A stretch of 54,815 nucleotides of DNA from a virus (lineage: Duplodnaviria; Caudoviricetes), in the IMG/VR virus record IMGVR_UViG_3300020200_000038, positions 1 to 54,815 of that record, one strand, 5' to 3'. The position numbers were made by a program, and so were the translations under genes. The notes under the pieces were generated by a model, which ran no database searches, was not told the DNA's origin, and saw only the letters and a list, made by a program, of their open reading frames with translations. This document shows, piece after piece, positions 6,807 to 54,815 of the stretch. Numbering within the stretch: position 1 is the first letter of the stretch; each line of letters starts with the position of its first letter.

Positions 6807-6879
6807 TTATACACTTCTCCCTAATGAATTCTGTATTATGTTTACCTGATGCATTGTGATTATCCATATTGATCGTCGA

Positions 6880-13310: not shown

Positions 13311-14419
13311 TACATGCCACTAAAGATTAACGGTAAATGAGTTGATTTTCTAAAATATTCCCTGCCAACAATGCGATCTGATTTATTAATTAATTCAATA
13401 CGCATATGTTTTAGGTTCTTTTCATAGTTCTGATTAATTAATATAGCTCCGTCACTATTCTCACGGAATAGATATAGATAATATAAAGCACGATCTTCAA
13501 TAACATGATGAAAACGTACTGGAATTGGAGAAATATCACTATTTACAGTCATACGATCTGCTTGTTTCCAGTAAGTGTAAGTTACTAGATAATCGTCATT
13601 AGGAACTGGTGTAACACCAAAACCATCATCTTTAGTTGCAAATACAAATAGAGGTTTTGAGTATTCACTTGGTTGAGCATAAGAATCCTGGACACTATAA
13701 AGGCGATTATAGCGATCTAACTCCATATACTCTAACTTCTCTTCTTGAATTTCACGGAACACTTGAACTAAATCAACAGCTCTATTTTCATTAGCTGAAT
13801 TAAGAAAATCAATAAAGGTATTTGCAGTAGTGGCTACAAAAGTTACAGTAAAGAAATTCCATCCACCAGCATTTACAGTTCCCATGGATTTAGAAGTATA
13901 GATTTCACTTCCACCGGAAGTTGAGCCAATTCGTAAATTAATCGCTCCGTCGAAATATCGTACAATAATCCTATATGTCTGTGTTGCTACGGTAGCTATA
14001 CTTTGTTCAGCAATGCCTACACCAGCAGCCCCACCATTTAATTGTAACCTACCATTACCACTTGAGATATGAGCAATAGTACCAGTAGCAGTAGATAAGT
14101 TACTCCAGTTTGTTATATTACTAGTAAATGCACCGTTAGTTACTAGATCAGCCGGCTTTAGAAAAAAACTCTCCCAGTCAACAGAAGTATAGCCTGTAGG
14201 GAGACTATACAACCGCTGACCGGGAGTTAATGTTTGACTTCCTGATTGAACGTTAAATGGCCACTCTAATTCTGTATTATTAATATCATCTATAGCATCA
14301 AGTACTGCTCGAGTTACGTAGTCTTGTATACTGGTATTAGCACCAGCTGCTACGCTAGTAATTTGTACTTCATTAACTCTCGATAATACATTATTACACA
14401 ACTGTAAATAAGTGGCCAT
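13310..14419 (-). CDS. head-tail adaptor / tubular protein A-like with an internal beta-sandwich insert
   Basis: MATYLQLCNNVL.R.NE N-terminus and IPVRFHHVI C-terminal motif. Confidence 0.75.
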   Translation of the reverse strand: MATYLQLCNNVLSRVNEVQITSVAAGANTSIQDYVTRAVLDAIDDINNTELEWPFNVQSGSQTLTPGQRLYSLPTGYTSVDWESFFLKPADLVTNGAFTSNITNWSNLSTATGTIAHISSGNGRLQLNGGAAGVGIAEQSIATVATQTYRIIVRYFDGAINLRIGSTSGGSEIYTSKSMGTVNAGGWNFFTVTFVATTANTFIDFLNSANENRAVDLVQVFREIQEEKLEYMELDRYNRLYSVQDSYAQPSEYSKPLFVFATKDDGFGVTPVPNDDYLVTYTYWKQADRMTVNSDISPIPVRFHHVIEDRALYYLYLFRENSDGAILINQNYEKNLKHMRIELINKSDRIVGREYFRKSTHLPLIFSGM

Positions 14420-14905: not shown

Positions 14906-15832
14906 TTATGAGAACTTGACGAATGCACCAGCTAGTGCATCACCGCGTAATGTTTTACGACCATAAAGGTGTAAACCACGTACAACGTCAGCAAAGCTGT
15001 CAGGATCGCGAATCATCTCAGTCTTTGCGATCTGAGAGGCAGTTACAGTGCTGGACATATGACCAGCAAGAACCATTGTAGTGGCATCCGTAAAGGTGCT
15101 ACTTGGGGTTTCACTATTAGGTGGTAGGTTGTTCGACATGTATGCAGTCATACCACGGATTGGTTTGTTGGTAACAAGACCATTACGTAGTGGTGACACG
15201 CTATCGCCAGTAACCTGAACTTCTATCAGTTTGCTATTTTCGTCAGCCATTTTCTCCCAGAAAGCTGGTGAGCCAACAACCCAACGACCATCAGTTGGTA
15301 CGTTGTCTTCGTCAAGTAGACGATTTAGACGGTTTAGAACAGCTAGTGGCGTAATTTGACCAGCACTGAAACCTACAGTAGTAGCAGAAGTAACAGTACC
15401 ATAGTTGTTGCCAGTAGCAATCTGAAGACGCATATATTCAAGAATTTCTTTATCAAACTGATCTTTCAAACCATAAGCAGCTGAACTAGTAGCCATGGTT
15501 TCCCAGTTGATATGGGCATGCTTTGCTTCAATGTCATCGACCTTGAATGCAAAAGCATTAGCTTTATCAACAATAAGTGAAATTTCATCATCTATTAGGT
15601 CCTGTGGTACTACGGTTTGACCACGGGCATAAGATGAAACAGCAACTGTTGGCTCGTTGATAATCTTAACAGTATCACCGAAATTCTCAATTTCGCCAGC
15701 GTAATCAGTGTTAGTGATGTCCTCAACAACTGAGGTACGACGGAAGAACTTAAGAACCTTCTTACTGTAGATTACAGGAGTAAAGTTGCCATTGGGCAGG
15801 TTGGTATAACCAGCTGAACGTGCAAAAGCCAT
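14906..15832 (-). CDS. major capsid protein (P22 coat-like, HK97 fold)
   Basis: NLPNGNF.P.IYSKKV, ITNTDY.GEI...GDTV.II, DSFAD.VRGLHLYG motifs; strong RBS. Confidence 0.9.
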   Translation of the reverse strand: MAFARSAGYTNLPNGNFTPVIYSKKVLKFFRRTSVVEDITNTDYAGEIENFGDTVKIINEPTVAVSSYARGQTVVPQDLIDDEISLIVDKANAFAFKVDDIEAKHAHINWETMATSSAAYGLKDQFDKEILEYMRLQIATGNNYGTVTSATTVGFSAGQITPLAVLNRLNRLLDEDNVPTDGRWVVGSPAFWEKMADENSKLIEVQVTGDSVSPLRNGLVTNKPIRGMTAYMSNNLPPNSETPSSTFTDATTMVLAGHMSSTVTASQIAKTEMIRDPDSFADVVRGLHLYGRKTLRGDALAGAFVKFS

Positions 15833-17229: not shown

Positions 17230-19122
17230 TCACCTCTGTCTGGGGTTTCTGTTAGTTGACTCCGCTCTTGGAGATCTTGACTCCGCTCTTGGAGATCTTG
17301 ACTCCGCTCTTGGAGATCTTGATGAGACATTCTTCGCCGCCGCGCCCCACGTCGGAGTATTAATATTGGGCATACCCTTACCTAAAAATAAGGTGCCATT
17401 TATTATCTTATTTCCCTCGAAGGCAGAGTCGTCTGTAGTCCCAGATTGTCGCCGTTGCCTAGGCTGAGCAACTTTCGAAATCACACCATCGATGAAGCGG
17501 CGGTAAGCATTTACCGCAACCTCGTCGAGCGCTTCTTCAGACCTTGCGTTCTGCTTTATCTGTTCTGCTCGGTGAGCATTTGAAGGAAATACTGTTTGTC
17601 TAGCATCCATACTGCTGGAAAGTACCTCTCCCCTTCTCTGCTCCGCTTTGGCTTCCCTGGGAGTGACGGCTTTGGCTTCAACCTGCTTGTTATAGGTATT
17701 CTCTTGGTGTAACGCACGAAGGGTTTGCCCAAATCGAGATGAGGGCATCTTATGTAACTCTCTTAGTTCTGCCCCAAGTCCAGATCTTAGCTGTTCATAA
17801 GATTGGCTGGATTTCGGTCCAAACTTCCGACCAAATTGTCGCCGTGATACTTTGGCTTCCTCCGCTCCAAGACTACGTAACTCGATTGGTACTGGCTGAC
17901 TAGACTGGGGCTTCGAAGGCTTGACGTCCCCTACATAAGAAGTAATTGGATTATCTTGTTCTAGTATAACTTCAATCGGCACATTATACTGGGGCTTCCC
18001 ATTATACTGGGGCTTCCCATCTTGGTGTAACGCCATACTGCTGGAAAGTACCTCTCCCCTTCTCTGCTCCGCTTTGGCTTCACGAAGGGTTTGCCCAAAT
18101 CGAGATCGAGCATCCTCCGCTCCAAGACTACGTAACTCGATTGGTACTGGCTGACTAGACTGGGGCTTCAATCGAGATCGAGCATCCTCCGCGGGGGTTC
18201 GCCCAGAGTGCATCGCCTGTACGGCCCTTACATAGTCCGTCAAATTGTTAAAACCAAGGCTCTGTGCGTATCTCGTTACAGCCTCCAAAACCCTGGCGGG
18301 ATTATCATATATGGCGCCGCTTAATCCTATTACATTACCACTGGAATCAACATTAAACCCAATAGACCCCGATACACCGAACTGTTCTCCTGATATAGTC
18401 AAACCTTTGCTGTATAAATTGTTCATATGCTTAGCCTGTGCACTACCGAGCGCATTTGCAATAAGGCCGAGTCCTGGTATGACATTCAGTAAGGTCTCAA
18501 CGAAAACACCAGGACGTGTGGCAGTCCATTGCCCAGCAACATACTGAGGATTAGTTCCCAGTACCTCGGGATTTGACAAAGCACTGACACCAGTACCTAT
18601 TAACCCTGCAATGGGGCCACCAGCACCAGCAATATGACTAACAACTGCAGCCACCGTGCCAGCTGGGGTCTTACCATATTTAGCACCTTCAATAAGATTA
18701 GACATTAAAGAGCTGTCTGAACGGGCCTGTGGTACTTCTTGGTGTAACGCACGAAGGGTTTGCCCATACCGAGCATCTGGTATGTTGGCTGCAACATCCA
18801 TTAGACGGTTACGTTCATAACCATAGTCCGAACCGCGAAATCCGTTAGGATTTTCAATGATACTAGGTGGCCTGACAGAAAGATTAGATTCTGGATCATT
18901 AGGTGATTTTGGTACAGTAGAAACTGGTGGATTACCAAATTCAAACTGAGGGGGAGCTATTATCGAGACAGGAGATCTATTCTTGTAGCGATATGCTATA
19001 CGACCATGGGCATCAATATAAGCTTCCAATTGTTTAGTAGGATCATACATATTGTATTGACTACTATATGAATTTTGAAAACCCGGCCTATTGATTATAG
19101 TTGGTGTTTCGTATGTTGCCAT
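17230..19122 (-). CDS. putative virion protein with a mosaic central/C-terminal region (630 aa)
   Basis: ORF between portal and scaffold, coupled to the upstream stop (TAATG); many internally reused peptides. Confidence 0.65.
   Translation of the reverse strand: MATYETPTIINRPGFQNSYSSQYNMYDPTKQLEAYIDAHGRIAYRYKNRSPVSIIAPPQFEFGNPPVSTVPKSPNDPESNLSVRPPSIIENPNGFRGSDYGYERNRLMDVAANIPDARYGQTLRALHQEVPQARSDSSLMSNLIEGAKYGKTPAGTVAAVVSHIAGAGGPIAGLIGTGVSALSNPEVLGTNPQYVAGQWTATRPGVFVETLLNVIPGLGLIANALGSAQAKHMNNLYSKGLTISGEQFGVSGSIGFNVDSSGNVIGLSGAIYDNPARVLEAVTRYAQSLGFNNLTDYVRAVQAMHSGRTPAEDARSRLKPQSSQPVPIELRSLGAEDARSRFGQTLREAKAEQRRGEVLSSSMALHQDGKPQYNGKPQYNVPIEVILEQDNPITSYVGDVKPSKPQSSQPVPIELRSLGAEEAKVSRRQFGRKFGPKSSQSYEQLRSGLGAELRELHKMPSSRFGQTLRALHQENTYNKQVEAKAVTPREAKAEQRRGEVLSSSMDARQTVFPSNAHRAEQIKQNARSEEALDEVAVNAYRRFIDGVISKVAQPRQRRQSGTTDDSAFEGNKIINGTLFLGKGMPNINTPTWGAAAKNVSSRSPRAESRSPRAESRSPRAESTNRNPRQR
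17256..17322. repeat. 21-bp tandem repeat x3
   Basis: ttgactccgctcttggagatc x3. Confidence 0.9.
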
Positions 19123-19319
19123 TAGTTTTTACTACCTATACTAAGAAGTTCTCGCACTAAAGCCGCTCTCCCCTGGAGTTGGAACAGAGCCTGTTCCGAT
19201 TGTGCCCCCTCCAGCCCCCGATGTATCTGCTGGAGACGCTCCTGCAACCATTCCGAGATTTTCACCCCCTGGGGGCTCTGGAGCGCTAATCGGACTTGGT
19301 GTACCAATTTGTCTTCCAT
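19122..19319 (-). CDS. small portal-proximal protein, overprinted on the portal 3' end
   Basis: LFQLQGRAALVRELL motif resembles small genes that follow podophage portals; its stop overlaps the next ATG. Confidence 0.6.
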   Translation of the reverse strand: MEDKLVHQVRLALQSPQGVKISEWLQERLQQIHRGLEGAQSEQALFQLQGRAALVRELLSIGSKN

Positions 19320-21273
19320 TCTGATTTCCCATAATTAAAGCATATATCTTAGCCTCATTGGCATCGTTAATCGTTGTTTCCGGATCAAGATCAAGTGTCG
19401 CTACAACTTCCTTGAGAACCTTGTCCCATTTAACAAATGGAGCAAGAACTGGATTAGAACCAACCTGCATTAACATCATTAGCCGCTGTGACTTGATTTC
19501 TTTTTTCATTAACGAGGCAGAACCTCGGGCATGAATATCCAGATCACCCACGATTTCTGGAAGGTCTTTATTGAACTGCATATTCCAAGCAAATAGTGAC
19601 TCACCGATAGGCTGAATGATATAGTCGTCTAGATTCTTAATTACAGTTTTAATGTTTAGTGCTGCAGCACCCATAAGCATTGACATGCCGGATGCCGTAC
19701 GAGTTGTAGAATTAATACCAGTCTGACCGTGCGAATATGAGGGAATACCAGTTTGTTCATCAGCTAACTGGCGAAATCGATCAAATACACTCATGTTCTC
19801 ATTAGTCGTATTAGGAAATTTGATACCGAATACTGCCTGCCCAGGAGCACCACCTTGACGCCTAAATTGCTTACCAGGAAAGATACGCATATCCTGACCG
19901 GGGACTAAAGCCTGCTCATCAACATCGAAAATTAAATTGCCGGAGATTTTTAGATTGTCGATGCACATACGAGCGGCACCGTTCATGATCATCTGGCTGT
20001 CGTCCATGTTTTCAGCTACACCGATACCAAAAAACCGATAGGGATTGGTCTCATACGGGGCTGAGTTATAAGGAATACGTGCTGGAGTGAATGGGTTAGC
20101 TACAAGTCGAATTAGACGCTTGCCACAAACCCAGGCATTAATTTGTATCTCATCTAGATTCGTCATTGAATTAGGAATATCAAGTCCGGCTTCTAGAGCT
20201 AAATCCTTATCTATTATGCCCCAAAATTCTAGAACTTCGAACCGGTTCGCCAGTTCATTAATATCTTCTTCGTCATGAAGTTGATCTTCGTAGCCTTGTT
20301 TGTCATACCCGGTGCCTTCTTCGATGCACATTTCTACAGCATCTTTATCAAAATAAGGACGATGCAATAGGGCGCGAAGTTGTGATGTAGTTAGCCTATG
20401 ACGTTGAATAACCCATTCAGCTTCTTCAAGATTACGAGCACTTGGATCTGGATAAAAATCCCAAATGCTGACAAATTCGAGCTTAGGAATTAGCTTATTA
20501 ATTGGCTCATAAACAGTTGCTGCTTCTGGATCTGCCATGTTCTTTGTCCATTTATGCAGAACCTTGTTGTAGTTAAATGGACCTTTTACTATTCCATGAC
20601 CAAGCATTGCCATTTCAAAACAAGTTTTACTTAGTACACGAGTGATGTTACTTTCTTCTAGCTGATCCATAATCAGCTTTTCCATGCTTTTAGCAGCGAT
20701 ACGAGCAGGTTCTATTTGAATATGCTGTGGAGTAGGTGCCGGACCTTTCTTCCACGGTAACATTGTTCCTAGCCGATTAGCTAGGCCCCCAAGGATAGAC
20801 TGTGCGGTAGCACCAGGAGCCAGATCATTACCATCGCCAGGATATCCGTAAGGATCACGGTTTGGAATACCGCCTTTGGCATTCTGGCCTGCTGCTGGAT
20901 CAACGTTTGCATATTCAGCAATACCTTCTGGAATCTTCGTTGGTTCAATAGTTAGAGGAAACCGGTCGTTGCTAAACAGTACGTCAATGATTTGACCATA
21001 AGCAGCTAAAACTTTAGTTTTAGTTATCTTGATGAAGATTTTAGATTGCTCTGAATCCTCGACAACAAAACCACCATCATAAACACCCCGATAATTACGA
21101 TAAGCTCGTAGCCATCTATCCTCATCGGTTTGGCGTTCATTGGCAGCTTCTTCGAAATATTTACGGATTGTTCCAGCTAGTGGGCTGTAAATACTTTCAT
21201 CAAGGGAAGTTTTAACTGCTATGACTGAAGAATCATCGAAAGCATCAGTTTGATCTGACTCAAAAATTGCCAT
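19141..21273 (-). CDS. portal protein
   Basis: FIKITKTKVLAAYGQI, SIWDFYPDP, FFGIGVAENM, RTASGMSMLM motifs; follows terminase. Confidence 0.9.
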   Translation of the reverse strand: MAIFESDQTDAFDDSSVIAVKTSLDESIYSPLAGTIRKYFEEAANERQTDEDRWLRAYRNYRGVYDGGFVVEDSEQSKIFIKITKTKVLAAYGQIIDVLFSNDRFPLTIEPTKIPEGIAEYANVDPAAGQNAKGGIPNRDPYGYPGDGNDLAPGATAQSILGGLANRLGTMLPWKKGPAPTPQHIQIEPARIAAKSMEKLIMDQLEESNITRVLSKTCFEMAMLGHGIVKGPFNYNKVLHKWTKNMADPEAATVYEPINKLIPKLEFVSIWDFYPDPSARNLEEAEWVIQRHRLTTSQLRALLHRPYFDKDAVEMCIEEGTGYDKQGYEDQLHDEEDINELANRFEVLEFWGIIDKDLALEAGLDIPNSMTNLDEIQINAWVCGKRLIRLVANPFTPARIPYNSAPYETNPYRFFGIGVAENMDDSQMIMNGAARMCIDNLKISGNLIFDVDEQALVPGQDMRIFPGKQFRRQGGAPGQAVFGIKFPNTTNENMSVFDRFRQLADEQTGIPSYSHGQTGINSTTRTASGMSMLMGAAALNIKTVIKNLDDYIIQPIGESLFAWNMQFNKDLPEIVGDLDIHARGSASLMKKEIKSQRLMMLMQVGSNPVLAPFVKWDKVLKEVVATLDLDPETTINDANEAKIYALIMGNQNGRQIGTPSPISAPEPPGGENLGMVAGASPADTSGAGGGTIGTGSVPTPGESGFSARTS

Positions 21274-21539: not shown

Positions 21540-23249
21540 CTAATAACCCAAAATTGGGTCTGCTGGTCGCCATGTTCTTTCAGTTATCTTACCAAAATCA
21601 GCCAATATATCAGCAGGATTTCTTGGTCTACTCATGCACCCATAGCGTAGTGCATCGTATGCATGATCTTCCGCATTTGTATCAACATCTTCTTGATTGT
21701 TCTTATCAAGTGGTAATGCAGGAAGAGTTCTTATTAAATTCCTACAAGTTGAGAATATTTGTAACGCAGGTTCGTAATTACCGTTTTTGTTAAGAATAGT
21801 TTTAGCCAAACGACGATGAATCTCTAGTTTACCATTAATACGACTGCGTGGACTCTGATCTGCTTTTGTCCATCTGCAGCCCTGTCTATTTAGAGTTTCA
21901 AAAATAGAAGGACCGCGATCACCACGCTTTGCATCAGTTGATCCATCGATGAACCCTCTCATGGGTTTTGGATCATTCTCTTCTAGTCCAAGTACGATTT
22001 CTGCAAGCTGATCTGGATTCTTGCCTTTAAAGTAAAGTTCACGATAAACGATAAGGCGTCCATCAAAATCTACAACAAACCACAACACACAACCATTACT
22101 GGAATATCCCCAATCGCAGGCTCTGAACCTTGTCCAGTTTCTAGGAATCTCGAACGGATTAATTACATGTATTGATTTGTCGAATTCAGGGAATGCAGCA
22201 TTATCGAATACATCCCAGTTTCCTTCCAGCCATTGCTGACGAAGAATATCTGGCAGTGAAGATAAAGTGATAAGATAATCTTCACTGTACATTAGATACG
22301 GATTATCTGTCAGCTTGGCTGGAATAAAACGTCGAGTTATGCTTCTTTTGCCTAACGGAGTTTCGATATCAATTACGAATGAGGTGTTAGGCGGCGCCGG
22401 ATTAATGAAAGTTTCCTTAACCCACAATGATCCAATGTTACCGGGGTTGCCGGTAGCCCGCATATAGGTAGGGATTTCCGGATCAATAGATCGTAGAGAT
22501 GATCTCAGGAAGTTCCAAACGCTGGCATCAGGATATTGCGGTAATTCATCTACGCCAATCCATGTATATGATTGGCCTTGATATCGGAGGGCGTCCTGGA
22601 GATTTTCAGCATAACCGAATTCGATTCTAGCTCCACTAGGGAATTTCCATTCCTTTTCTTGTTCTCTCCATTTCGCACCGGGGAAAGCTCTTCCATAAAG
22701 ATGTTGACTGTGGCTAATCATGTCGCGTAGTTCTGGCATTGTTCTGCGTAGAATCAAGGCACGATGTGAACGACGATCGCAATACCGTAGAGGATCTACA
22801 AGAATAGCATAGGATTTACCACCGCCTCTAGCACCACCATAAAATACTTCTTTCTCTGCTGCTGCCAGAAATTCCGTCTGTTGGGCAGTAGGTTTGAAAA
22901 TGATCTCTTGATTTTCTAGAAACTCCTTAATTGTAGGAGTTGCTCTGTCAAGAATATCCTGCTCGACTATGACTGGCTTTTGGCCAGATATAATTTGTCG
23001 AAGCGTATTTAATACTTCTTCCTTCTCTTTGCGTTTATTACGATGGGCTCGAAGGTTATTATCAACTTTTTCAAAGTTCTTCCTAATAGCCGTTTCTTTA
23101 GTACGCTGTTTATAGATAGCATCCTGACCAGAACGAACTGCTCTTTTAAGATCTACTTGGGCGATCTTATCCCCGTCAATTTGACCCCTAGCTTGAGCAG
23201 TTTCTTTCTTAGTCGAAGGGGGCGCTACATCATCAAGAAGCATCAGCAC
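21540..23249 (-). CDS. terL: terminase large subunit
   Basis: Walker A YGGARGGGKS, Walker B IGVDE, ATGNPG, nuclease DWGY and DHAYDALRY. Confidence 0.95.
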   Translation of the reverse strand: MLMLLDDVAPPSTKKETAQARGQIDGDKIAQVDLKRAVRSGQDAIYKQRTKETAIRKNFEKVDNNLRAHRNKRKEKEEVLNTLRQIISGQKPVIVEQDILDRATPTIKEFLENQEIIFKPTAQQTEFLAAAEKEVFYGGARGGGKSYAILVDPLRYCDRRSHRALILRRTMPELRDMISHSQHLYGRAFPGAKWREQEKEWKFPSGARIEFGYAENLQDALRYQGQSYTWIGVDELPQYPDASVWNFLRSSLRSIDPEIPTYMRATGNPGNIGSLWVKETFINPAPPNTSFVIDIETPLGKRSITRRFIPAKLTDNPYLMYSEDYLITLSSLPDILRQQWLEGNWDVFDNAAFPEFDKSIHVINPFEIPRNWTRFRACDWGYSSNGCVLWFVVDFDGRLIVYRELYFKGKNPDQLAEIVLGLEENDPKPMRGFIDGSTDAKRGDRGPSIFETLNRQGCRWTKADQSPRSRINGKLEIHRRLAKTILNKNGNYEPALQIFSTCRNLIRTLPALPLDKNNQEDVDTNAEDHAYDALRYGCMSRPRNPADILADFGKITERTWRPADPILGY

Positions 23250-27546: not shown

Positions 27547-27564
27547 GCCGCCCGCACTCACCCT

Positions 27565-27598
27565 TGGCGCGCGCCTACGGGCGCGCGCCACTTTTTTT
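27565..27598 (+). terminator. intrinsic terminator
   Basis: TGGCGCGCGCC-TACG-GGCGCGCGCCA 11-bp stem with a UNCG loop, then C and T7. Confidence 0.85.
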
Positions 27599-27916
27599 GC
27601 CCCGATTGTTCGATATTTGTAGAAATATGAAACAATCTTCTATCACAAATCGAACTATCATCAAATTTTATTATTTGGTTGTTGGTTGTTGGTTGTTGGT
27701 TGTTGGTTGTTGGTTGTTGGCCGAGTAGGCGACCAGACGCCAAATAAACGACATTCACCACTGGCGCGCGCCTACGAGCGCGCGCTTTTCTGCCCCGATT
27801 GTTCGATATTTCTAGAAGTATCGAATAATTTTCTATCACAATTCGATATTTCCAGAAGTATCGAATTTTATTCTATGGTTGTTGGTTGTTGGTTGTTGGT
27901 TGTTGGTTGTTGGTTG
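27565..27916. repeat. duplicated module: GC hairpin + palindrome(s) + (TTGGTTG)n
   Basis: Copy 1 about 27565-27720, copy 2 about 27762-27916. Confidence 0.85.
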
Positions 27917-27950
27917 TCGTGGCGAGACTTCCAAGTCCATACCGTCTAAT

Positions 27951-27979
27951 TTGACATAACTATTGAAATGTGCTACAAT
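27951..27979 (+). promoter_or_regulatory. sigma70-type promoter
   Basis: TTGACA-17bp-TACAAT with an extended -10 TG. Confidence 0.8.
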
Positions 27980-28006
27980 TAACATACTGGTAAATCCAAT
28001 TAACAG

Positions 28007-28738
28007 ATGGTGAATGCAATGGAGGACATGCTGATCACGGGGAAAACTGAAGAATGGCTGACAGCTAGAATGCGATCGCTAGCCAATCAGGGCTATGCGG
28101 GGGCGCAGTACACCATCGGCCTTATGTACGCCGAGAGCCGGGGTGTTCCCCAGGACTTTGTCGAGGCCGCCAAGTGGTTCCGACTGGCAGCCGAGCAGGG
28201 CTATGCGAAGGCGCAGTGCTACCTCGGCTGGATGTACTTCGTCGGCCAGGGTGTTCTTGAGGACGATGCCGATGCCGTCAAGTGGTACCGACTGGCGGCC
28301 AAGCAGGGCCTTGCGGCAGCGCAGTACAACCTCGGCAAGATGTACGACAACGGCCTGGGTGTTCCCCGAGACGATGTCGAGGCCGTGAAGTGGTACCGGC
28401 TTGCAGCCGAGCAGGGCCAACAGCGTGATGCCGATTATGAGGCTAAGATCTATTCTGCGCAGGCGCTATCTCAGTTGCGATCGCTAGCCAATCGGGGCTT
28501 TGCAGAGGCGCAGTTCAACCTCGGCTGGATGTACGCTAACGGCGAGGGTGTTCCCCGGGACGATGCCGAGGCCGCGAAGTGGTACCGTCGCGCAGCCAAG
28601 CTGGGCCATCGGCAAGCCATATACAACCAAAAGGCCACGATCCTTTCGCTCTATAGTTACTTAAATCAGTACGTCCCTGATAACGATGGAGAATGCAATG
28701 AAAACCAAAAGGCATCCTCAGCAAAAGCTGACAGCTAA
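28007..28738 (+). CDS. Sel1-like repeat protein
   Basis: Four AQYxLGxMY..G.GV..D..EA.KWYRLAA.QG repeats. Confidence 0.9.
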   Translation: MVNAMEDMLITGKTEEWLTARMRSLANQGYAGAQYTIGLMYAESRGVPQDFVEAAKWFRLAAEQGYAKAQCYLGWMYFVGQGVLEDDADAVKWYRLAAKQGLAAAQYNLGKMYDNGLGVPRDDVEAVKWYRLAAEQGQQRDADYEAKIYSAQALSQLRSLANRGFAEAQFNLGWMYANGEGVPRDDAEAAKWYRRAAKLGHRQAIYNQKATILSLYSYLNQYVPDNDGECNENQKASSAKADS

Positions 28739-28955
28739 GGCCGCGACGTGGTTACGGCGTGCGGCCAAGCAGGGCGATGCGTGGTCGCAATTTATGCTGC
28801 GATCGCTCGCCGAGCAGGGCCATGCGGAGGCGCAGTACAACCTCGGCGTTATGTACGACTACGGCGAGGGTGTTCCCGAGGACGATGCCGAGGCCATGAA
28901 ATGGTTCCGGCTGGCGGCCGAGCAGGGCCATCAGCACGCCATATGGAGAAGGTGA
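28686..28955 (+). CDS. short Sel1-like repeat protein (probable start 28698)
   Basis: One full Sel1 repeat AQYNLGVMYDYGEGVPEDDAEAMKWFRLAAEQG. Confidence 0.75.
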   Translation: MENAMKTKRHPQQKLTAKAATWLRRAAKQGDAWSQFMLRSLAEQGHAEAQYNLGVMYDYGEGVPEDDAEAMKWFRLAAEQGHQHAIWRR

Positions 28956-28958
28956 ATC

Positions 28959-29168
28959 ATGACCTATTCAAAGGATTCGCACGATCAGAGAACCGATGCT
29001 GAACGAAAGCGTTACAAGCGGAGAATGCTGCGCATGAAATATCAACGCGCCCTAGAACGCCACAGGGAATTCAGCATCCTTTATGACGCCTTGGGTTACA
29101 TCGCGGCGATCATCATTGGCTGCACCCTACCGGTGCTAGCTTGGGCAATTTTGAGGATTGCGCCATGA
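28959..29168 (+). CDS. small membrane protein
   Basis: Basic N-terminus, C-terminal TM helix, GGTGA RBS. Confidence 0.6.
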   Translation: MTYSKDSHDQRTDAERKRYKRRMLRMKYQRALERHREFSILYDALGYIAAIIIGCTLPVLAWAILRIAP

Positions 29169-29239
29169 ATAACATCCTGATCAAGAAGCTGGGCCTGCCC
29201 AACATCCGGGATCGGAACCAAACTATCACGCGAAAATTA

Positions 29240-29270
29240 TTGGTTGTTGGTTGTTGGTTGTTGGTTGTTG
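29240..29270. repeat. (TTGGTTG)4 heptamer repeat
   Basis: Same heptamer as at 27675 and 27876. Confidence 0.9.
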
Positions 29271-38860: not shown

Positions 38861-39674
38861 TAATGTTGTTGGGCATTATATAGTATTGGATGCACTGTTG
38901 TTCTTTCTTAACAAACATTCTAGATGTAAGTTTTGGATTGCCGGTGGTTTCCCATTAAACGTCTACGATAATTTCATAAAAAAAAGAATATCAAACGGTA
39001 CTACAAGTAATTTCTTATCGCATGATATTGATGTATTTTTTGATAATAAGACTGAGGCTGCAAGACTCAACAGCTTTATTAATCGACTGGATGTTATTTT
39101 TCATCGGTGTACGGCTGAAAATGACCATGTCAGAATGGATATTATATTCTCGTATATATTTGGTAATAATGGTTGTTTATGTATGACAATGTATAAAACA
39201 TTAAATGCTTATAATTTTTATCTTAGAGTTCCAGCCTTTAATGTTAAACTTTACCATAACGATCATGTAATATCTCTTATTAAGACATTTACAACAGATA
39301 ATCCAGAAAATCTTATCAAGCGATTTGACTTTACTGTCTGTCAGTTCTATATAGATAAATATGGTGATTTATACGGTTCTCCAGAGGGGATGCAAGACTG
39401 GAATGACAAGAAGCTTTGTTTATCAAGCTATGGTCCGCATCCAACATTTATATCCAGAGTAAATAAATATAAACACAGATATAAACTTACTTTAGATGAA
39501 ACTCTTGCTAAAGCCTATGGGGCAGCTAAGGTACGGATGCATGTAGATCCGGAGATGAATAATGAAATTGTTGAATTCCAAGATGAAAATGATTATGGAG
39601 AAATATTAACAGGAGGCATGATCAATGAAGAAGAAAAAGCAGCAAGTGCCGAGCAAGTTCCCAATCAATCTTAG
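38799..39674 (+). CDS. nucleotidyltransferase-fold protein (CCA/poly(A) polymerase head-like)
   Basis: IAGG...DIDVFF...FDFTVCQ...R..KY; start uncertain. Confidence 0.7.
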   Translation: MVPDRCYSMGQSQDITLTKVSNVVGHYIVLDALLFFLNKHSRCKFWIAGGFPLNVYDNFIKKRISNGTTSNFLSHDIDVFFDNKTEAARLNSFINRLDVIFHRCTAENDHVRMDIIFSYIFGNNGCLCMTMYKTLNAYNFYLRVPAFNVKLYHNDHVISLIKTFTTDNPENLIKRFDFTVCQFYIDKYGDLYGSPEGMQDWNDKKLCLSSYGPHPTFISRVNKYKHRYKLTLDETLAKAYGAAKVRMHVDPEMNNEIVEFQDENDYGEILTGGMINEEEKAASAEQVPNQS

Positions 39675-40218
39675 CATACAAAACTGTAAGATTGCTTTAG
39701 TAGGGGAAGCTCCAGGACAACTAGAAGAAGAACTTAATGAACCATTCGTTGGTCGTGCTGGTAAGTTGCTTAATAGGCTTCTGAAAGATGCCACCATTGA
39801 TAGAGACGAGTGTTACATAACTAACGTGTTTAAGGAGCGACCAGAGAATAACAAAATTGATAAGTTCTTTATATCCCGTCGTCAACTGGTTGTTGAAAAT
39901 GAAGATCTACATACTTATGGTACTCCATTTAAAACATTTTATTTAGACAAACAGTACAATAAGTATCTAACTATGTTACATCGAGAATTAACTGAAATTA
40001 ATCCTGCTGTTATCATCGCATTAGGAGCCATCCCATTATGGGCTTTTACCGGACGGTCTGATATATCAACAGCACGAGGAATTAGTTTATTGTGGAATAA
40101 CATCCCATTGATCGCAACATTTCATCCTGCATATTTACTGCATGGGAATATGGGGCATAAAGATAAAGTAGTTGCTGATCTAGGAATGGCTAAATCGGTG
40201 GCTAATGGTACTAAGTGA
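39625..40218 (+). CDS. uracil-DNA glycosylase (family 4-like)
   Basis: VGEAPG..E...EPFVG.AG, YITNV, ALG, TFHPAYLL. Confidence 0.85.
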   Translation: MKKKKQQVPSKFPINLSIQNCKIALVGEAPGQLEEELNEPFVGRAGKLLNRLLKDATIDRDECYITNVFKERPENNKIDKFFISRRQLVVENEDLHTYGTPFKTFYLDKQYNKYLTMLHRELTEINPAVIIALGAIPLWAFTGRSDISTARGISLLWNNIPLIATFHPAYLLHGNMGHKDKVVADLGMAKSVANGTK

Positions 40219-42272
40219 TGCAGACAGTAATTGACTGTGAGACCAGCTATCAGGTAGTCGACGGGAAGAAAGATCCCTCCCCGTTTAATAATAAGAATAA
40301 ACTAGTCTCTTTGGGTTATAACACTTCGACCGGTAAATCCAACTACCTGTTCTTTGCTCATAATCAACTTTCAGATATACCATTAAAACAAAATTTTAAT
40401 GAATTACAAATCATCTTGGATCAGACCACACTTCTGATTGGTCACAATATTAAGTTTGATCTAGAATGGCTCTTGGAGTGTGGGTTTAAATACTCTGGCT
40501 TATTATGGGACACTATGGTGTGCGAGTATGTATTTGCTCGTGGACTCAAACCTAGTTTTAATCTTAATAATGTAGCCAAAACGTATGGGTTTGAGGGTAA
40601 AGATAAAAATATTGAAGAATATCTACGCCAGAACATATCGTTCGAGGATATTCCGCCCACTATTATTGAAACGTATGGGCGTCAAGATGTTAGCCAAACC
40701 GGTAAAATATTCCTACAACAAGAAGAACGCCTGAGCAAAGAAGACAATATCTTAAAGCCCACAGTTCACATGTCGATGGACTTTATTTGGCCATTGATTG
40801 CCATGGAACGTAATGGCATTAAGATTGACACGAATATTCTCAAAGCTTTAGAACAGCAATATACCATTGAATACAATGAGATAGAGGCTAATCTTAAGAA
40901 AATTATTCAGCAGGTGATGGGGGCTACCCCGATCAATTTGAATAGTCCTGAACAACTATCTTTATTAATATACTCTCGTAAGGTAAAAGATAAGGCCAAG
41001 TGGCGAGAGACATTTAACATAGGAAGTGAACTCAGAGGATCAATAGTAAAGTCTAAGTATAAGACAAAAATGGATAATTTGAATTTTATTAAAGTAGTAC
41101 GTGAACAGACGGAGGTTGTCTACAAAACTGAAGCTGTACATTGTACCACATGTAACGGACTAGGGTTCTTTTACAAGATTAAGAAGGATGGGAACCCCTT
41201 CAAAAAATCGACCGTCTGTAGGGCCTGCGGGGGCCGTGGGTTCACGTATAAGAGTCTTCCTATGGTAGCTGGCCTTAAAGCTGTTCCTGCGTCCTACGAG
41301 GATACAGCGGACGGTGGGTTTGTTACTGACGGATATACTTTAAGTATACTGAAAAATAGAGTGACAACTAAGGCTGCTGCTGTTATTGATCTGCTGATCC
41401 GAAGAAATAAATTAAGCACGTATCTAGACACATTTATTAGGGCTTTAAGTAAAGTAGACAATAGCAGTATTCTGCATCCCAGCTTCATGCAGTGTGCTAC
41501 AGCCACAGGTCGGCTTTCATCCAGAAATCCAAACTTCCAGAACCAACCTAGAGGGGATAAGTTCCCATTAAGGAAGGTTGTAGTGTCCAGGTTTGACGGT
41601 GGCCATATCTTAGAAGGAGATTATTCACAGCTTGAGTTTAGGGTTGCTGCAGAACTTTCTGACTGCAAGGTAGCCTATCAGGATATTGTAGATGGGGTTG
41701 ACATACATGCCCAAACAGCTAATATACTAGGATGTTCCAGGCAGGATGCTAAACCTGATACGTTCAAACCTTTATATGGCGGACAGACTGGAACAGATAA
41801 GCAACAAGCATATTATTCTTTCTTTTTAAAAAAGTATTCGGGTATTTCGGCATATCATGTTAAATTACAGAATGAGGCAGTAACGAATAAAGTAATTCGA
41901 ATACCTACCGGAAGGGAATACGCATTTCCTAATGCACAGTGGATGCGAAATGGTTCGGCTACATTCGCAACAAAAATAAAGAACTATCCGGTACAAGGAT
42001 TTGCTACCGGAGATATTGTCCCTATATCATCAATACTTATTTATAAGCTTATGATTGAAAAGAAAGTTAAGTCACTGTTAATAAACGAAGTACATGATTC
42101 TAATATTGCTGATGTATTTCCTGGTGAAGAACAAGTTATGATTGAGATCTTTACTCAAGGAATGCTTGGAGTTAAAGAAGAACTTGTTAGACGGTATAAC
42201 TATAAACTTACTGTTCCACTATCTATTGAATTAAAGATAGGGGAGAATTGGCTGGAATTAAAGAAATTATGA
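40215..42272 (+). CDS. family A DNA polymerase with 3'-5' exonuclease and DnaJ-like Zn-finger insert
   Basis: DCET, GHNIKFD; CTTCNGLG and CRACGGRG; TGRLSS, DYSQLEFR, R..AK..TF..LYG, VHDS. Confidence 0.95.
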   Translation: MMQTVIDCETSYQVVDGKKDPSPFNNKNKLVSLGYNTSTGKSNYLFFAHNQLSDIPLKQNFNELQIILDQTTLLIGHNIKFDLEWLLECGFKYSGLLWDTMVCEYVFARGLKPSFNLNNVAKTYGFEGKDKNIEEYLRQNISFEDIPPTIIETYGRQDVSQTGKIFLQQEERLSKEDNILKPTVHMSMDFIWPLIAMERNGIKIDTNILKALEQQYTIEYNEIEANLKKIIQQVMGATPINLNSPEQLSLLIYSRKVKDKAKWRETFNIGSELRGSIVKSKYKTKMDNLNFIKVVREQTEVVYKTEAVHCTTCNGLGFFYKIKKDGNPFKKSTVCRACGGRGFTYKSLPMVAGLKAVPASYEDTADGGFVTDGYTLSILKNRVTTKAAAVIDLLIRRNKLSTYLDTFIRALSKVDNSSILHPSFMQCATATGRLSSRNPNFQNQPRGDKFPLRKVVVSRFDGGHILEGDYSQLEFRVAAELSDCKVAYQDIVDGVDIHAQTANILGCSRQDAKPDTFKPLYGGQTGTDKQQAYYSFFLKKYSGISAYHVKLQNEAVTNKVIRIPTGREYAFPNAQWMRNGSATFATKIKNYPVQGFATGDIVPISSILIYKLMIEKKVKSLLINEVHDSNIADVFPGEEQVMIEIFTQGMLGVKEELVRRYNYKLTVPLSIELKIGENWLELKKL

Positions 42273-46933: not shown

Positions 46934-47282
46934 TTTAATGAACACATCTGTAACAAATTTTATACAAGCTTTTAATCAACTAGCCCAGGATATCACTACT
47001 CAGTGTAAGGCCAAGGGCTTTGCTGACAATTGGAATGATGGAGAGAAGATCGCTTTGATGCATTGTGAGCTATCAGAGGCTCTGGAAGAACTACGTCGTA
47101 ACAATCAGGAGCTATCTGAGAAGCTTAATGGTGAGGTTACCAAGTTCACCGAAGAGCTTGCCGATACAATCATTCGAATTATGGATTTCGCTGGTCATTA
47201 TAATCTGAACTTAGGTAAGGCTATTGTCATGAAGCATGATTACAACAGTAAACGGCCATATCGGCACAGCAAGAGGTTTTAA
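46924..47282 (+). CDS. MazG-like nucleotide pyrophosphohydrolase
   Basis: ALMH.ELSEALE...EELAD..IR..D...K..YN..R.YRH. Confidence 0.8.
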
Positions 47283-50708: not shown

Positions 50709-51176
50709 TTAATGAACATGCGTATTCCACTTTTCCAGGAATTTCTCTGGGGTACCTTTACCAAGATGGGTGTTGTAATACTTTTTCCAATAGTTGGCTA
50801 AATCAATAATATTGTTACCGTCAGGTAATGGCTCGGCTACTCTGAAATAGTGTATTCGAGCCATTGCTGTTGCCAAGTATAGGTTGCCGACCATAGCATC
50901 TGGCTGTGCTGGTTTCTCACCGGAGAACTGGCTAACGATGTTACGGAGAAGTGGCTTGTATTGGATAAAGTTGATAGTAATATCCTTGAACGTAGCAGGT
51001 TCCATTTGATAGATACCTAGAGCTGGGCCATCGTTCTGGATAAGATATTTACCCATGTCACTTTCGACAGCGGCAGTGCCTATAAGTAAATTGACTGCAG
51101 CTTTTGTATTAAACTGTGGTCCTATATTTGTTAGAGTAGGTATGATTACGTGATCACGTAAATGTGTCCAGAGCAT
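50709..51176 (-). CDS. lysozyme-like endolysin
   Basis: GTAAVES, GPALGIYQMEPAT, YWKKYYNT..GKGT; adjacent to the holin gene. Confidence 0.75.
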   Translation of the reverse strand: MLWTHLRDHVIIPTLTNIGPQFNTKAAVNLLIGTAAVESDMGKYLIQNDGPALGIYQMEPATFKDITINFIQYKPLLRNIVSQFSGEKPAQPDAMVGNLYLATAMARIHYFRVAEPLPDGNNIIDLANYWKKYYNTHLGKGTPEKFLEKWNTHVH

Positions 51177-51187
51177 TGGGCATTTTC

Positions 51188-51610
51188 CTATTTACCAGTT
51201 GTTCCTTTCCATTTCTCGAAGGTGCGTCCACCTGTGTAACCTAGATAACCAGCACCAAACAGCCACCACATGGCTTCTGGAATTGCAGCCAGCATATTGG
51301 AAGCACCATTGGCTGCGACTGAAACTTCTGTCGCCAAGCCAAAGGCACTAGAGATACCGCCTACAAAGCACAGAACAATGATGCTATACATAAGATAAAG
51401 AAATGTTGGTCTGGCCCTACTAGTCCATGGGTCTGTGCTTTTTGCTTCTGCAGTAATAGCTCCCATGGCTAACTCTAACTCTTTGAATTCGCCTTGTTGC
51501 TGTAGTTCTAAAAGTTTTAATTTTGCTTGTTCCTTAGCGACAGGATCAGGAATAACCTTATCAATGATCTTGAAGATCGGTCCTGCAATCAGTTCTACGA
51601 TTCCTAACAT
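51188..51610 (-). CDS. holin (3TM / GTA-holin-like)
   Basis: IDKVIPD, EA.S..W..RARP, TM segments, GY.G.RT.EK. Confidence 0.75.
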   Translation of the reverse strand: MLGIVELIAGPIFKIIDKVIPDPVAKEQAKLKLLELQQQGEFKELELAMGAITAEAKSTDPWTSRARPTFLYLMYSIIVLCFVGGISSAFGLATEVSVAANGASNMLAAIPEAMWWLFGAGYLGYTGGRTFEKWKGTTGK

Positions 51611-51611
51611 G

Positions 51612-52046
51612 TTATGGTGCCTTATTGAATATGTTGAAGCCAGCTTCTAATGCTCCTAGGGTACCGCCTATTAGTATGCCGATAACGCCTATGCCTTTAG
51701 CTACGCCTTTGGTTAGTTGAGACTCCCGCTTTAGTTTTTCTACATCATTGCGGGTTGTTAAAAAGTCAGCTAGGGTATCCTTGGTTATTAATTGTAAGCT
51801 ACTTATATGCTCCACTTGGTATAGTTGTAGGGTTTTAAGTTGTGCCCCTAGCTCTCTACCTAGCTCAGCAATCTGCGTCTGTAGCCTCTCATCTGACTTG
51901 TTTAGGGCCGAATGAATGGCTGCATGGTCAATACGATTCATCTGAACATGAGCTTCGGCAGTGTCTTTAATTGATCGTATTTCTGTTTCAACTGTTGCCA
52001 TACGTTCCCGTAAGGCGATATCAATCAATTGTGGAGACTCATCCAT
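51612..52046 (-). CDS. coiled-coil protein with C-terminal TM (lysis module)
   Basis: Heptad pattern plus GIGVIGILIGG. Confidence 0.6.
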   Translation of the reverse strand: MDESPQLIDIALRERMATVETEIRSIKDTAEAHVQMNRIDHAAIHSALNKSDERLQTQIAELGRELGAQLKTLQLYQVEHISSLQLITKDTLADFLTTRNDVEKLKRESQLTKGVAKGIGVIGILIGGTLGALEAGFNIFNKAP

Positions 52047-54815
52047 TATCTTGGGCCTTTACGTTCCGTAAATCAATTTGCCACCAGGAGTTATTATCAT
52101 CATCCACTACTAGCTTTGCGCCATAGTTTTGTTTGACATATGTTCCAATATCCTCGCCGCGATTGTATAGTCTAGAATATGACAGGCTACCCGGGTGTTC
52201 TTTTTGATAATCTTGGAGAACAGCCTGATACCGTGGATTGAGTGTCCGAGAAATCTTTTTTGTGCTTAGCGCTTTGATAATATCCGTATATTCTTGACTG
52301 AGGGGATTATCCAGTTGCGTGAATACGGCGATCATTTCAGAGCTAACTTTTTCCGACTGTGAGATTAAGTTATCTCTGAATTTATTCATGTTGTGTCTAA
52401 TCTTCGTCGGATTTCTTGTCCTCTGGAGCTGACCAGGTAGGGGCTTGGACCTTTTCTTACTTACCAGTAGACGAGCATGCTGGAACGATTCGATATCACT
52501 CTGTGACGGACTGTTCCAGCGTACCAGGTTGTCAATCTCTTCCTCCAGAATTTGTCTTCGTACTGTAGCATCAGGTACATCCTTTAAGCGCGCAAGAAAC
52601 AGCGGGATCCTGAGGATGTTGAGCATGTCGTCCGTCTTGCTGTGCCGAAAAAACTCTCCCGGCCTTGATCGTATTTCTGTTTCAGGCCAGGTTGTCAATC
52701 TCTCCCTCCAGAATTTGTCTTTTAGCTCGCCATAGTTTTGTTTGACATATGTTCCAATATCCTCTTGGTAGGTCAGCAGGTCGTCTTTAAGAGGCCAATT
52801 GTCCGAAATAAGATTCAAGGTCTTCATCAGTTGCGAGGCCGGCGGTATTGCAGTCTGATACAATCCGGCATAGTCATACAGTATGCGCTTGAGCTGGTCG
52901 AAGGGGATAATAAACTTAAGATTGTCAGGTATTAGGTCGCTTATAATACTATCTACAACAGCGCTTTTTATTTTTTCAAGAGGCCAGTTGTCCGAAATCT
53001 TTCGTGGCACTATTTGGTTAAAATTCTCTAGCTTGGCTGTCGTAGTTGGTGTTGGAAAGTGTATAAATTCAACACCATCTATTATTCCTTTTTTGATTTC
53101 GGCATTCACGAAGAATTGCCACCAGTTATCTTTCAACATCAAGAATGGTTGAAGCGTTCCAGCTGGGTATACCATTTTTAAGGAATGAGAAAGACTATAA
53201 TATAACTCGCTAAGTCCTTGGGCTTGGATTTGGGTGTTGTATTGATTTTTCCAATGGGCAGTTGTCTCAATATACCTCAAAGAATCCAGAAACCTCGGAA
53301 AATCGGATAATTCGCCTTCATACCCAAGTATTTTTATCAATTTATGTATGTTCTCTAGATAATCGCTTTGAATCTCTAGTACATATCGCTTGCTGCCAAC
53401 CCCACTCGTTGTATTATATGCCAGCTTAATATTGAAGTCTATTTCGGCCTGACTTACTAGGTCCCCTGATTTCATTGTAGCAGATTTTTCAGTAAGTAAG
53501 TTGTATAATTTCCCTGCAGCGGCTACGTATTTACTGTGGAGTCCAGACAGGTTGTCGGCATCAATTGTACGAGTATGTGCTAGATAATTAGTGAAATCCT
53601 TTGCAAAATGCTCTGATGTGAAGTCTATTCCAGGAATTTGATATATATTAGTTTGTGGATTGCCAAGTACATATGTCAAAACCTGATCTTGATTTAATAG
53701 ATTGCCGATGCGAGTAGTAGGATCCCGGGGAATACTCGCGTCACTGGGGTGATTACTAAGGTGAGTAAATGTTGCTAATGCTAGTTGAGACTTCCGTGCT
53801 TCTCCATATCGAAGAATAGATTCCATTTTAGGGTCGTTTTGCTCAGCAGCGATAGCCTGCTCAATAGGCAAGCGTTGCCGGGTTGCCGCTAGTTCTGGAG
53901 AAACAAAAAATTCTTTTCCTGTTCTGCTTGAAAACGCACGTGGAGAGTCTGCTGTGGATTTTCCCCCCGGTTTGGGGGCTATATTGCTTACTCGGAACGA
54001 CTCGACTTGATCAGCAGGAACATCGATGTACGTTAATATCCCGTTCGGGTACTCATGGTCGAGATACCACTGTGCTTCTGCGCGGTCATCAGTAAACCAA
54101 CGCCCCGTCGCCGCAAGCGTGTTTTTGTAATTGTCAGACTCTGTAATCCATGCAGCGATAGACTGCTTTGGAGCATCGGGATTTTCCTCCGCCCGATACA
54201 ATCGAACAGTTTTCGGGGTAGCAGCATTGCCTACTCGGAACGACTCGACAAGCGCCTCAAATGCACGCTTGGTAGCAGCTTCTGTCAAGTTATCCCGCAC
54301 TAGTTCTTTTAGGTAATCAAAGTTTTCAAGTATTTTTATACTATTGTCTAATGTTTTTAAATCTTCTTGTAGCATGTCGTAAGTCTTTACGGTAGTGCTG
54401 GCCGGCGCTCCGGCGCGTTCGGCGATACTAGTGAATTGCCCATAAGGCTGTCCAGTCGAATCGAGCAGTTTCCGAGTGGTGTAATTGCCATTTATAGGAT
54501 TAACTATAAAGTTAAAAAACGTATTGCCAATATTAGCTGTATCGGAAACAAGGTTGTTTTTCCTAAGTTGGTTATAAAGCTCCTTGAATTCTTCGGGTTT
54601 GACGGTGCTGGTGTACTCGAGGGTTAGCTCGGCTCTATCCCTTGGAAAATGGAGTTCTTGGTTGATGCGCTCAATGATCGAGTCGTTTGATTCTTGAGAC
54701 TGTGGTGCGGGTACTGCTGTAGTATTATGGAGTTTAGACGCGGGTGGCCGAAATACCCGCACCATATAGCGTTTCGTTTGCTGCGGTTCAAGGTTTTCAG
54801 GATTTAAGATCCTTA
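52039..54815 (-). CDS. large polyvalent-type internal virion protein, 5'-truncated at the window edge
   Basis: Frame stays open from 54765 to the right edge; contains an ART-like segment and HF...YLAHTR...LEIQSD...FPT motifs. Confidence 0.7.
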   Translation of the reverse strand, partial: RILNPENLEPQQTKRYMVRVFRPPASKLHNTTAVPAPQSQESNDSIIERINQELHFPRDRAELTLEYTSTVKPEEFKELYNQLRKNNLVSDTANIGNTFFNFIVNPINGNYTTRKLLDSTGQPYGQFTSIAERAGAPASTTVKTYDMLQEDLKTLDNSIKILENFDYLKELVRDNLTEAATKRAFEALVESFRVGNAATPKTVRLYRAEENPDAPKQSIAAWITESDNYKNTLAATGRWFTDDRAEAQWYLDHEYPNGILTYIDVPADQVESFRVSNIAPKPGGKSTADSPRAFSSRTGKEFFVSPELAATRQRLPIEQAIAAEQNDPKMESILRYGEARKSQLALATFTHLSNHPSDASIPRDPTTRIGNLLNQDQVLTYVLGNPQTNIYQIPGIDFTSEHFAKDFTNYLAHTRTIDADNLSGLHSKYVAAAGKLYNLLTEKSATMKSGDLVSQAEIDFNIKLAYNTTSGVGSKRYVLEIQSDYLENIHKLIKILGYEGELSDFPRFLDSLRYIETTAHWKNQYNTQIQAQGLSELYYSLSHSLKMVYPAGTLQPFLMLKDNWWQFFVNAEIKKGIIDGVEFIHFPTPTTTAKLENFNQIVPRKISDNWPLEKIKSAVVDSIISDLIPDNLKFIIPFDQLKRILYDYAGLYQTAIPPASQLMKTLNLISDNWPLKDDLLTYQEDIGTYVKQNYGELKDKFWRERLTTWPETEIRSRPGEFFRHSKTDDMLNILRIPLFLARLKDVPDATVRRQILEEEIDNLVRWNSPSQSDIESFQHARLLVSKKRSKPLPGQLQRTRNPTKIRHNMNKFRDNLISQSEKVSSEMIAVFTQLDNPLSQEYTDIIKALSTKKISRTLNPRYQAVLQDYQKEHPGSLSYSRLYNRGEDIGTYVKQNYGAKLVVDDDNNSWWQIDLRNVKAQDNG

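Follow-up and report, generated by a model that had tools for sequence, protein, structure and literature searches.

The window analysed here is the whole of the IMG/VR virus record IMGVR_UViG_3300020200_000038, 54,815 bp of phage DNA from lake-water metagenomes, labelled linear and 100% complete. Near its right end, within a large minus-strand gene, lies a short coding segment, here called zone 1, that consists for the most part of near-exact copies of sequences found elsewhere in the same genome. By coordinate arithmetic zone 1 amounts to exactly 68 codons and begins and ends on codon boundaries. Five tracts make up the copied part, each with a template in the genome (5/5), and 148 of their 153 positions are identical to those templates (~3% differ), with identities of 92-100% per tract. 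Four of the five templates are direct and lie within 52-700 bp, and the fifth is inverted in an upstream gene of 1354 amino acids (aa). All coordinates are collected in Table 1.

Five copied tracts had been reported in the initial annotation of this stretch. Direct sequence comparison found all five pairs (5/5) where that annotation had placed them, with identities of 30/30, 20/20, 34/35, 37/37 and 20/21, and translation returned the same peptide readings, namely SKTDDMLNIL, ETEIRS, QILEEEIDNL becoming KFWRERLTTW, EDIGTYVKQNYG and ISDNWPL. Its view that a coding stretch can consist largely of copies from other places in the genome while its frame stays open is likewise supported; its treatment of the stretch as a single local oddity is not, as a genome-wide pattern was found. 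The four direct pairs were recovered by a repeat search, and BLAST against the record recovered all pairs except the one offset by 163 bp. Two tracts proved longer than first reported: tract 1 (52613-52642, against the reverse complement of 3090-3119) reaches 37 bp at 35/37, and tract 5 (52789-52809, against 52978-52998) reaches 24 bp at 22/24. Tract 1 also has a third relative, a direct match of 20/21 at 4101-4121.

The separators between the tracts measure 22, 2, 6 and 24 bp and are mutually unrelated, and the 18 bp that flank a tract on either side are no more alike than expected by chance. Near-exact copies, abrupt borders and the absence of flanking similarity together point to recent copying rather than old duplication. 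Diverged intragenic protein repeats were considered and rejected, as similarity stops at the tract cores and two tracts depart from the donor reading, one by a shifted frame and one by lying antisense; a CRISPR-like array was rejected on the lengths of the separators and their lack of relation to one another. In 30 second-order Markov simulations of the window the mean number of recurrent 18-mers was 0.03 (maximum 1) and that of recurrent 20-mers 0. The window itself holds 389 recurrent 18-mers and 332 recurrent 20-mers, and simulations near zero against hundreds observed exclude chance. Under random placement, the occurrence of five of the ~24 tract copies inside 204 bp has P ~4e-5. The 22-bp separator can itself be tiled by three shorter matches, which overlap their neighbours by 8, 1, 3 and 3 bp. 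About 0.9 matches of at least 13 bp are expected per 540 bp, and the size of these tiles is only marginally beyond chance; the tiling is no more than suggestive.

Table 1. Positions in the window of zone 1, its tracts and templates, and the other features discussed.
Feature	Position	Strand	Details
Zone 1	52606-52809	-	204 bp; codons 653-720 of the 908-aa reading; peptide ISDNWPL...MLNILRI
Tract 1	52606-52642		inverted copy of 3090-3126, 35/37 (30 exact); antisense relative to donor gene
Tract 1 partner	3090-3126		inside the 1354-aa ORFan gene
Tract 2	52665-52684		direct copy of 51971-51990, 20/20; ETEIRS, frame shared with the 144-aa gene
Tract 2 partner	51971-51990		inside the 144-aa ORFan gene
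Tract 3	52687-52721		direct copy of 52524-52558, 34/35; offset 163 bp, shifted frame
Tract 3 partner	52524-52558		same gene as zone 1
Tract 4	52728-52764		direct copy of 52119-52155, 37/37; same frame, EDIGTYVKQNYG
Tract 4 partner	52119-52155		near 3' end of the same gene
Tract 5	52786-52809		direct copy of 52975-52998, 22/24; same frame, ISDNWPL
Tract 5 partner	52975-52998		same gene as zone 1
22-bp gap	52643-52664		tiled by 52635-52648 = reverse complement of 47261-47274 (14 bp), 52648-52660 = 14163-14175 (13 bp), 52658-52667 = 6688-6697 (10 bp)
Host gene, C-terminal 924 codons (P0001 residues 814-1737)	52039-54813	-	runs off record end
Host gene, first 43 codons	3-131	-	13 bp after stop of the 1354-aa gene
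Zone 2	18020-18192		in the 630-aa ORFan gene between portal and head genes; six abutting or overlapping tracts of 14, 49, 26, 23, 57 and 23 bp, all 100%
Zone 3	54703-54787		same gene as zone 1; 54703-54751 = reverse complement of 3163-3211 (47/49), AA, 54754-54787 = 3201-3234 (34/34)
QDAKPDT copy	2715-2737		in the 1354-aa gene; 23 bp = DNA polymerase 41741-41763, opposite strand, same sense and frame
1354-aa ORFan gene	145-4209	-	
Fibre	10455-11729	-	
Tail proteins	13310-14419 and 11733-13310	-	
Major head protein	14906-15832	-	
Portal	19141-21273	-	
Terminase	21540-23249	-	
A-family DNA polymerase	39625-42272	+	
phrog_3108 protein	50709-51176		near right end
Three-helix holin	51188-51610		near right end

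The host gene and support for its sequence

The host of zone 1 had initially been taken as a 908-aa open reading frame (ORF). Alignment with P0001, a protein from a separate 32,759-bp contig assembly, corrects this: the gene encodes 1737 aa, and the 908-aa reading, which equals P0001 residues 830-1737, is the C-terminal part of a gene cut by the record ends. Residues 44-813 of P0001 (~2.3 kb) are missing from the record. Since both record ends fall within one gene and these residues are absent, the genome is circular or permuted and the record has a gap in its assembly, despite its label as linear and complete.

Read support was judged from contigs rather than raw reads, a level at which rare variants would be hidden. 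Contigs built independently from four lake-water runs cover zone 1 with 0 differences; two of the runs may be the source of the record, and two are other samples and studies from the same year. For X1, records 2 and 3 cover 52126-52757 and 52735-53863; for X5, records 18 and 19 cover 52528-52697 and 52749-53033; for X6, record 27 covers 52365-52639. Each of these showed 0 differences, as did X3 records 11 and 12. Runs X7-X11, which contain small shares of the words, lie outside this comparison. Depth is flat (9.8-14.6 in X1) save for the expected doubling at the 37-bp repeat of tract 4, at which contigs break because the assembly words are short. The two junctions flanking this repeat are bridged by no contig with at least 31 letters on both sides, and the tract order there rests on the original assembly and on P0001, which reads through.

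The sequence is, then, supported by contigs from four runs and by P0001, no depth anomaly is confined to the stretch, and the sequence of zone 1 is no assembly artefact. That chimeric molecules arose in assembly or library preparation might be suspected from a record broken inside the host gene with ~2.3 kb missing and from contigs that break at the 37-bp repeat, but such an origin is extremely improbable: two of the four runs are not flagged as a possible source and agree without a difference, depth is undisturbed, and P0001, which comes from another assembly and reads through the whole zone, differs from the window protein by two substitutions, both outside it. Two apparent joints, one in X3 that 'goes back 609' and one in X1 from 54751 to 52606, were considered as variants and rejected; both are explained by repeats, and that in X3 also by low cover. 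One X1 contig extends ~308 bp past the window end. An inverted copy, ~19 bp long, of 52945-52963 lies in the stretch of the gene that the record lacks, as shown by loose contig ends at 52963 (X1, X3 and X5) together with the P0001 sequence NTIYNS (residues 696-701).

Searches for relatives returned little over zone 1. The P0001 cluster has one member, and neither Pfam nor PHROG gave a family for the host gene, for P0001 or for a conserved domain of ~115 aa within it. HMMER against 1.84 billion representatives gave 210 hits, of which one, full-length, is the same gene from the other assembly. The remaining 209 of the 210 are confined to residues ~180-306, the ~115-aa domain, which also occurs within phage proteins of 2000-3700 aa and as stand-alone proteins of 110-190 aa. 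Apart from that full-length match, no HMMER match aligns over zone 1, and the gene is an ORFan there. Relatives of the 908-aa protein were found neither in IMG/VR (by peptide patterns) nor in Joint Genome Institute (JGI) metagenome contigs, and a word-indexed protein search over near lengths only returned none. A tblastn search of the 908-, 1354-, 144-, 642- and 630-aa proteins against 147 viral loci gave no match, and a 41-nt pattern across a junction matched nothing in viral_contigs or metagenome_contigs (0 in each), near-identical records possibly lying outside the search scope. GenBank phages gave one 75-bp match, which is irrelevant. In the Atlas the top score was 0.89, and a PARP family appeared in 16% of one cluster, a lead only. 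Prediction of residues 520-908 by AlphaFold2 without an alignment gave a mean predicted local distance difference test score of 36.5 and was uninformative.

A likeness by description exists to polyvalent or large injected phage virion proteins as presented in PMC5512222, in that a very large multi-part protein with a ~115-aa domain is encoded among virion genes. The comparison concerns the host gene and not the patchwork, and no Pfam or PHROG family was matched. The name 'ART-PolyVal', considered for the domain, is absent from PMC5512222 and was dropped. In all four runs (4/4) the part of the gene that encodes the domain (53855-54221, 367 bp) had a depth 5-10x that of its flanks, and contigs over it differ at 4-8 positions and diverge abruptly at both sides. 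The excess depth and the differing contigs indicate that this module is shared, at ~98% identity, by a more abundant entity in the same lake. Within the module, at 53989-54006, is an 18-bp repeat (VESFRV) that recurs just outside it, at 54232-54249.

Further patchwork zones and the direction of copying

Two further zones of the same kind were found in the window. Zone 2 is tiled completely, with tract overlaps of 1, 1, 9 and 8 bp. A 39-bp unit that is intact at 17702 (17702-17740) and at 18737 is interrupted in zone 2, at 18033, by a 49-bp copy of 17607-17655, for a net gain of 48 bp; zone 2 shows insertion, nesting and microhomology. All six of its tracts are read in the donor frame, one of them from a gene on the opposite strand (EVILEQDNPITS), and nearby lies a 41-bp tract (40/41) from a plus-strand 212-aa gene. 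The sites related to zone 2 are 17607-17740 and 18737-18773. In zone 3 a contiguous 72-bp source (3163-3234, in the 1354-aa gene) has been copied twice, once inverted and once direct; the two copies share 11 bp of the source and meet at a joint of 2 bp, a strand-switch signature.

The inverted tracts of zones 1 and 3 could have been kept for a function at the RNA level, by pairing in a late polycistronic transcript as processing or regulatory duplexes. The sequences concerned, 52606-52642 with 3090-3126 (35/37) and 54703-54751 with 3163-3211 (47/49), are indeed complementary and lie in co-directional, neighbouring minus-strand genes. Pairing of this kind would nevertheless account for one of the five tracts of zone 1, the four direct copies being unable to pair, and no Rfam family was matched; the explanation is very unlikely.

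Such copies are unusually frequent in the window, as shown by a count of dispersed exact pairs of at least 18 bp: 17 in 54.8 kb, 7 of them inverted and 3 in Sel1 repeats, against 27 in 670 kb of 36 other viral loci (each at least 15 kb), 22 of which had none. In the five control loci inspected, the pairs were palindromic motif families or local duplications. A 24-bp inverted copy links 6875-6898 with 39064-39087, the latter in a nucleotidyltransferase-like gene, and the copy at 6875-6898 supplies the last codons and the stop of a 117-aa ORF (6880-7233).

Two copies have their partner in a conserved gene. The QDAKPDT copy in the 1354-aa gene comes from a part of the DNA polymerase that aligns with the Klenow segment RRSAKAINFGLIYG, which we take to be catalytic motif B. 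The other is an 18-bp tract of a tail gene (14309-14326, QDYVTR) that occurs also, antisense, in the 630-aa gene; of the 39 tblastn rows spanning the site, 16 have K[ND][FY][VIT]N[RK] aligned with QDYVTR, and most of the other rows have a similar motif displaced by four residues. In both testable pairs (2/2), these alignments demonstrate that the conserved gene holds the ancestral copy and the ORFan gene the derived one. Zone 3 points the same way, since its source is contiguous and its copy rearranged, giving a direction from the 1354-aa gene to the host gene of zone 1.

For zone 1 itself, we infer that it would be the recipient and not the donor, because five clustered copies face dispersed partners, because polarity is visible in zones 2 and 3, and because of the two conserved-gene pairs. 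With reversed polarity the 204-bp stretch would be old and would have served as the template for five partner sites. In favour of such a history are the indirect way in which the polarity of zone 1 is read and the location of all five partner sites (five of five) in ORFan genes. It would demand five independent exports in place of one complex import, however, and sits poorly both with the contiguous source and rearranged copy of zone 3 and with the ORFan gene being the recipient in both testable pairs; we consider it improbable. Whether one event or several built zone 1 is a matter of inference, and five copies in 204 bp with dispersed partners make one complex event, or a hot spot, more parsimonious than five exports.

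Reading frame and the probable origin of zone 1

Taken together, these findings make it probable that 52606-52809 is a templated patchwork insertion, produced by serial template-switch or 'filler DNA' synthesis and retained in frame. During replication or break repair in a large, insertion-tolerant, virion-type gene, a 3' end would have been extended in several short bouts, each copying 20-37 bp from an ectopic template. Four of the templates would have been 52-700 bp away on the same strand, and the fifth, in the upstream 1354-aa gene, on the opposite strand and ~7.7 kb away counting the missing 2.3 kb. The gain of exactly 68 codons with no stop among them would explain why the product was kept. 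Since the phage has at least three zones of this kind, the process would be a recurrent one in its lineage.

Comparable local copying of a strand during replication is known from quasi-palindrome-templated mutations in T4 and E. coli. Among eukaryotic-genome processes, close ones are microhomology-mediated break-induced replication / fork-stalling and template switching (MMBIR/FoSTeS) and templated insertions (PMC2621351, PMC8421209). The likeness lies in serial short tracts, nearby templates and either orientation, with overlaps of 1-9 bp in zone 2 and the strand switch of zone 3; the difference lies in the setting, here a phage and coding sequence, in products that are fixed and in frame, and in the small unassigned joints at the main junctions of zone 1. 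Short template-switch mutations (PMC5453318) are likewise copied locally, from the same strand or its complement, and zone 3 fits them well; typically, though, these are single, local, replacing events, whereas zone 1 has five tracts, one of them copied over a distance of kilobases. A patchwork of short templated segments, joined through 1-2 untemplated bases, is also seen in filler DNA at repaired double-strand breaks and in polymerase-theta end joining (PMC2567098, PMC8654963, PMC9121065). Their enzymology is eukaryotic; no homologue of it was found beyond the phage's own A-family polymerase, and no search aimed at one was made.

Several observations weigh against serial templated insertion as the whole account of zone 1. 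Its three best-defined junctions are without microhomology, with unassigned joints of 2, 6 and 24 bp. No allele or homologue that lacks the 204-bp stretch was found in IMG/VR, in JGI contigs, in protein searches, with HMMER or with junction patterns. The ~3% of zone 1 positions that differ imply either error-prone synthesis or an event that is not particularly recent. None of the phage's enzymes is an obvious candidate for the copying, since its primase, DnaB-type helicase, A-family polymerase and Cas4-like nuclease all look ordinary. Finally, eight of nine intragenic pairs keep the donor frame (P ~0.001), far more than blind mutation predicts; stop-codon avoidance fails to explain this bias, so that protein-level selection or a further mechanism has to be invoked as well.

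The frame bias is less even beyond single genes. Five of the 11 intergenic pairs keep the donor frame (P ~0.025), and this falls to 3/9 when two pairs are dropped, 27467/28419 as possibly paralogous and 4101/52620 as non-independent. In zone 1, three of the five tracts are in frame, one is shifted and one antisense, and tract 4 is by inspection open in all three sense frames. The frame-keeping pairs (8/9 intragenic, 5/11 intergenic) favour an explanation by peptide modules, in which the shared tracts would be short functional motifs for binding or assembly, as in scaffold-like or ejected virion proteins, spread by recombination and kept for what they encode; zone 1 would in that case be a group of clustered motifs and no by-product of repair. 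All six tracts of zone 2 agree with this, even the one taken from the opposite strand (EVILEQDNPITS). We nonetheless regard peptide modules as an unlikely explanation, given that two of the five zone 1 tracts, both zone 3 tracts and the tail-gene copy are out of frame or antisense, and that the intergenic bias is as fragile as the reduced count indicates. A shared function is unlikely for seven catalytic-motif residues of a polymerase in a virion protein, and a copying mechanism would still be required.

Mosaic regions built from donor segments are also produced by antigenic-variation segmental conversion and by diversity-generating retroelements. Zone 1 could accordingly be a variable cassette under programmed diversification, rebuilt by one or other of these systems: the large virion protein in which this mosaic of short donor segments lies may encounter host defences, and the tract sizes resemble those of segmental conversion. 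Unlike those systems, however, the donors here are working genes with long ORFs and not silent cassettes. No reverse transcriptase, integrase, recombinase or transposase was among the 37 window ORFs covered by the family scans, smaller ORFs being outside the scan. The consensus is the same in the contigs of four runs and in P0001, with no variation among the contigs examined, at a level where rare variants would be hidden. Neither of the two single-base mismatches with displayed bases involves adenine, and five different donors were used. Programmed diversification is therefore to be given very little weight.

Returning to templated insertion, a wider proposal is offered tentatively and with some doubt: the lineage may have active, error-prone template switching, perhaps a property of its A-family polymerase replisome, that repeatedly writes 20-60-bp snippets of its own genes into large ORFan virion genes. 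ORFan genes are common in phages, and little is understood of how they arise. In at least three zones of the present genome, coding sequence is composed of short stretches copied from other genes. A polymerase catalytic motif is the origin of one copy in the genome and a tail gene that of another, and direction is readable in several cases. A full-text literature search, at abstract level and with supplements outside its scope, turned up no paper on patchworks of this kind within the coding genes of phages. If the proposed origin is true, the patchworks would capture new protein sequence while it is put together from recycled coding fragments, a path of protein growth and ORFan evolution not known to have been described for phages. 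If it is general, it would provide a concrete and testable mechanism for the growth and diversification of large virion or ejected proteins, and a natural example in a prokaryotic virus of templated-insertion mutagenesis, otherwise studied mainly in eukaryotes. There is also a practical warning, in that such tracts break short-word assemblies and a 'complete' record was here cut inside the host gene.

Genome setting

Domain and family scans of the window ORFs gave a podovirus-type layout with a T7-like replisome. In addition to the polymerase, the plus strand encodes a primase, a DnaB-type helicase, a Cas4-like nuclease and a ribonucleotide reductase. The 144-aa ORFan gene that shares tract 2 adjoins the holin, and a search with its protein matched itself alone.

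The region 27558-29270 stands apart in composition, with a GC content of 51% against 37-47% elsewhere, and holds the Sel1-repeat gene (28007-28738). It carries the only three HIP1 octamers of the window, where 0.35 are expected, together with three perfect TGGTTGT heptamer arrays (27675-27720, 27876-27917 and 29240-29270) and a 193-bp repeat. The region may be host-derived, and is a weak lead to a cyanobacterial host. Finally, the 630-aa ORF and a 188-aa ORF overlap by ~100 nt over a perfect tandem repeat of 21 bp x 3.2 (17230-17330), which reads SRSPRAE in one ORF and QDLQERS in the other; this overlap could be a frameshift site or reflect a mis-set start.

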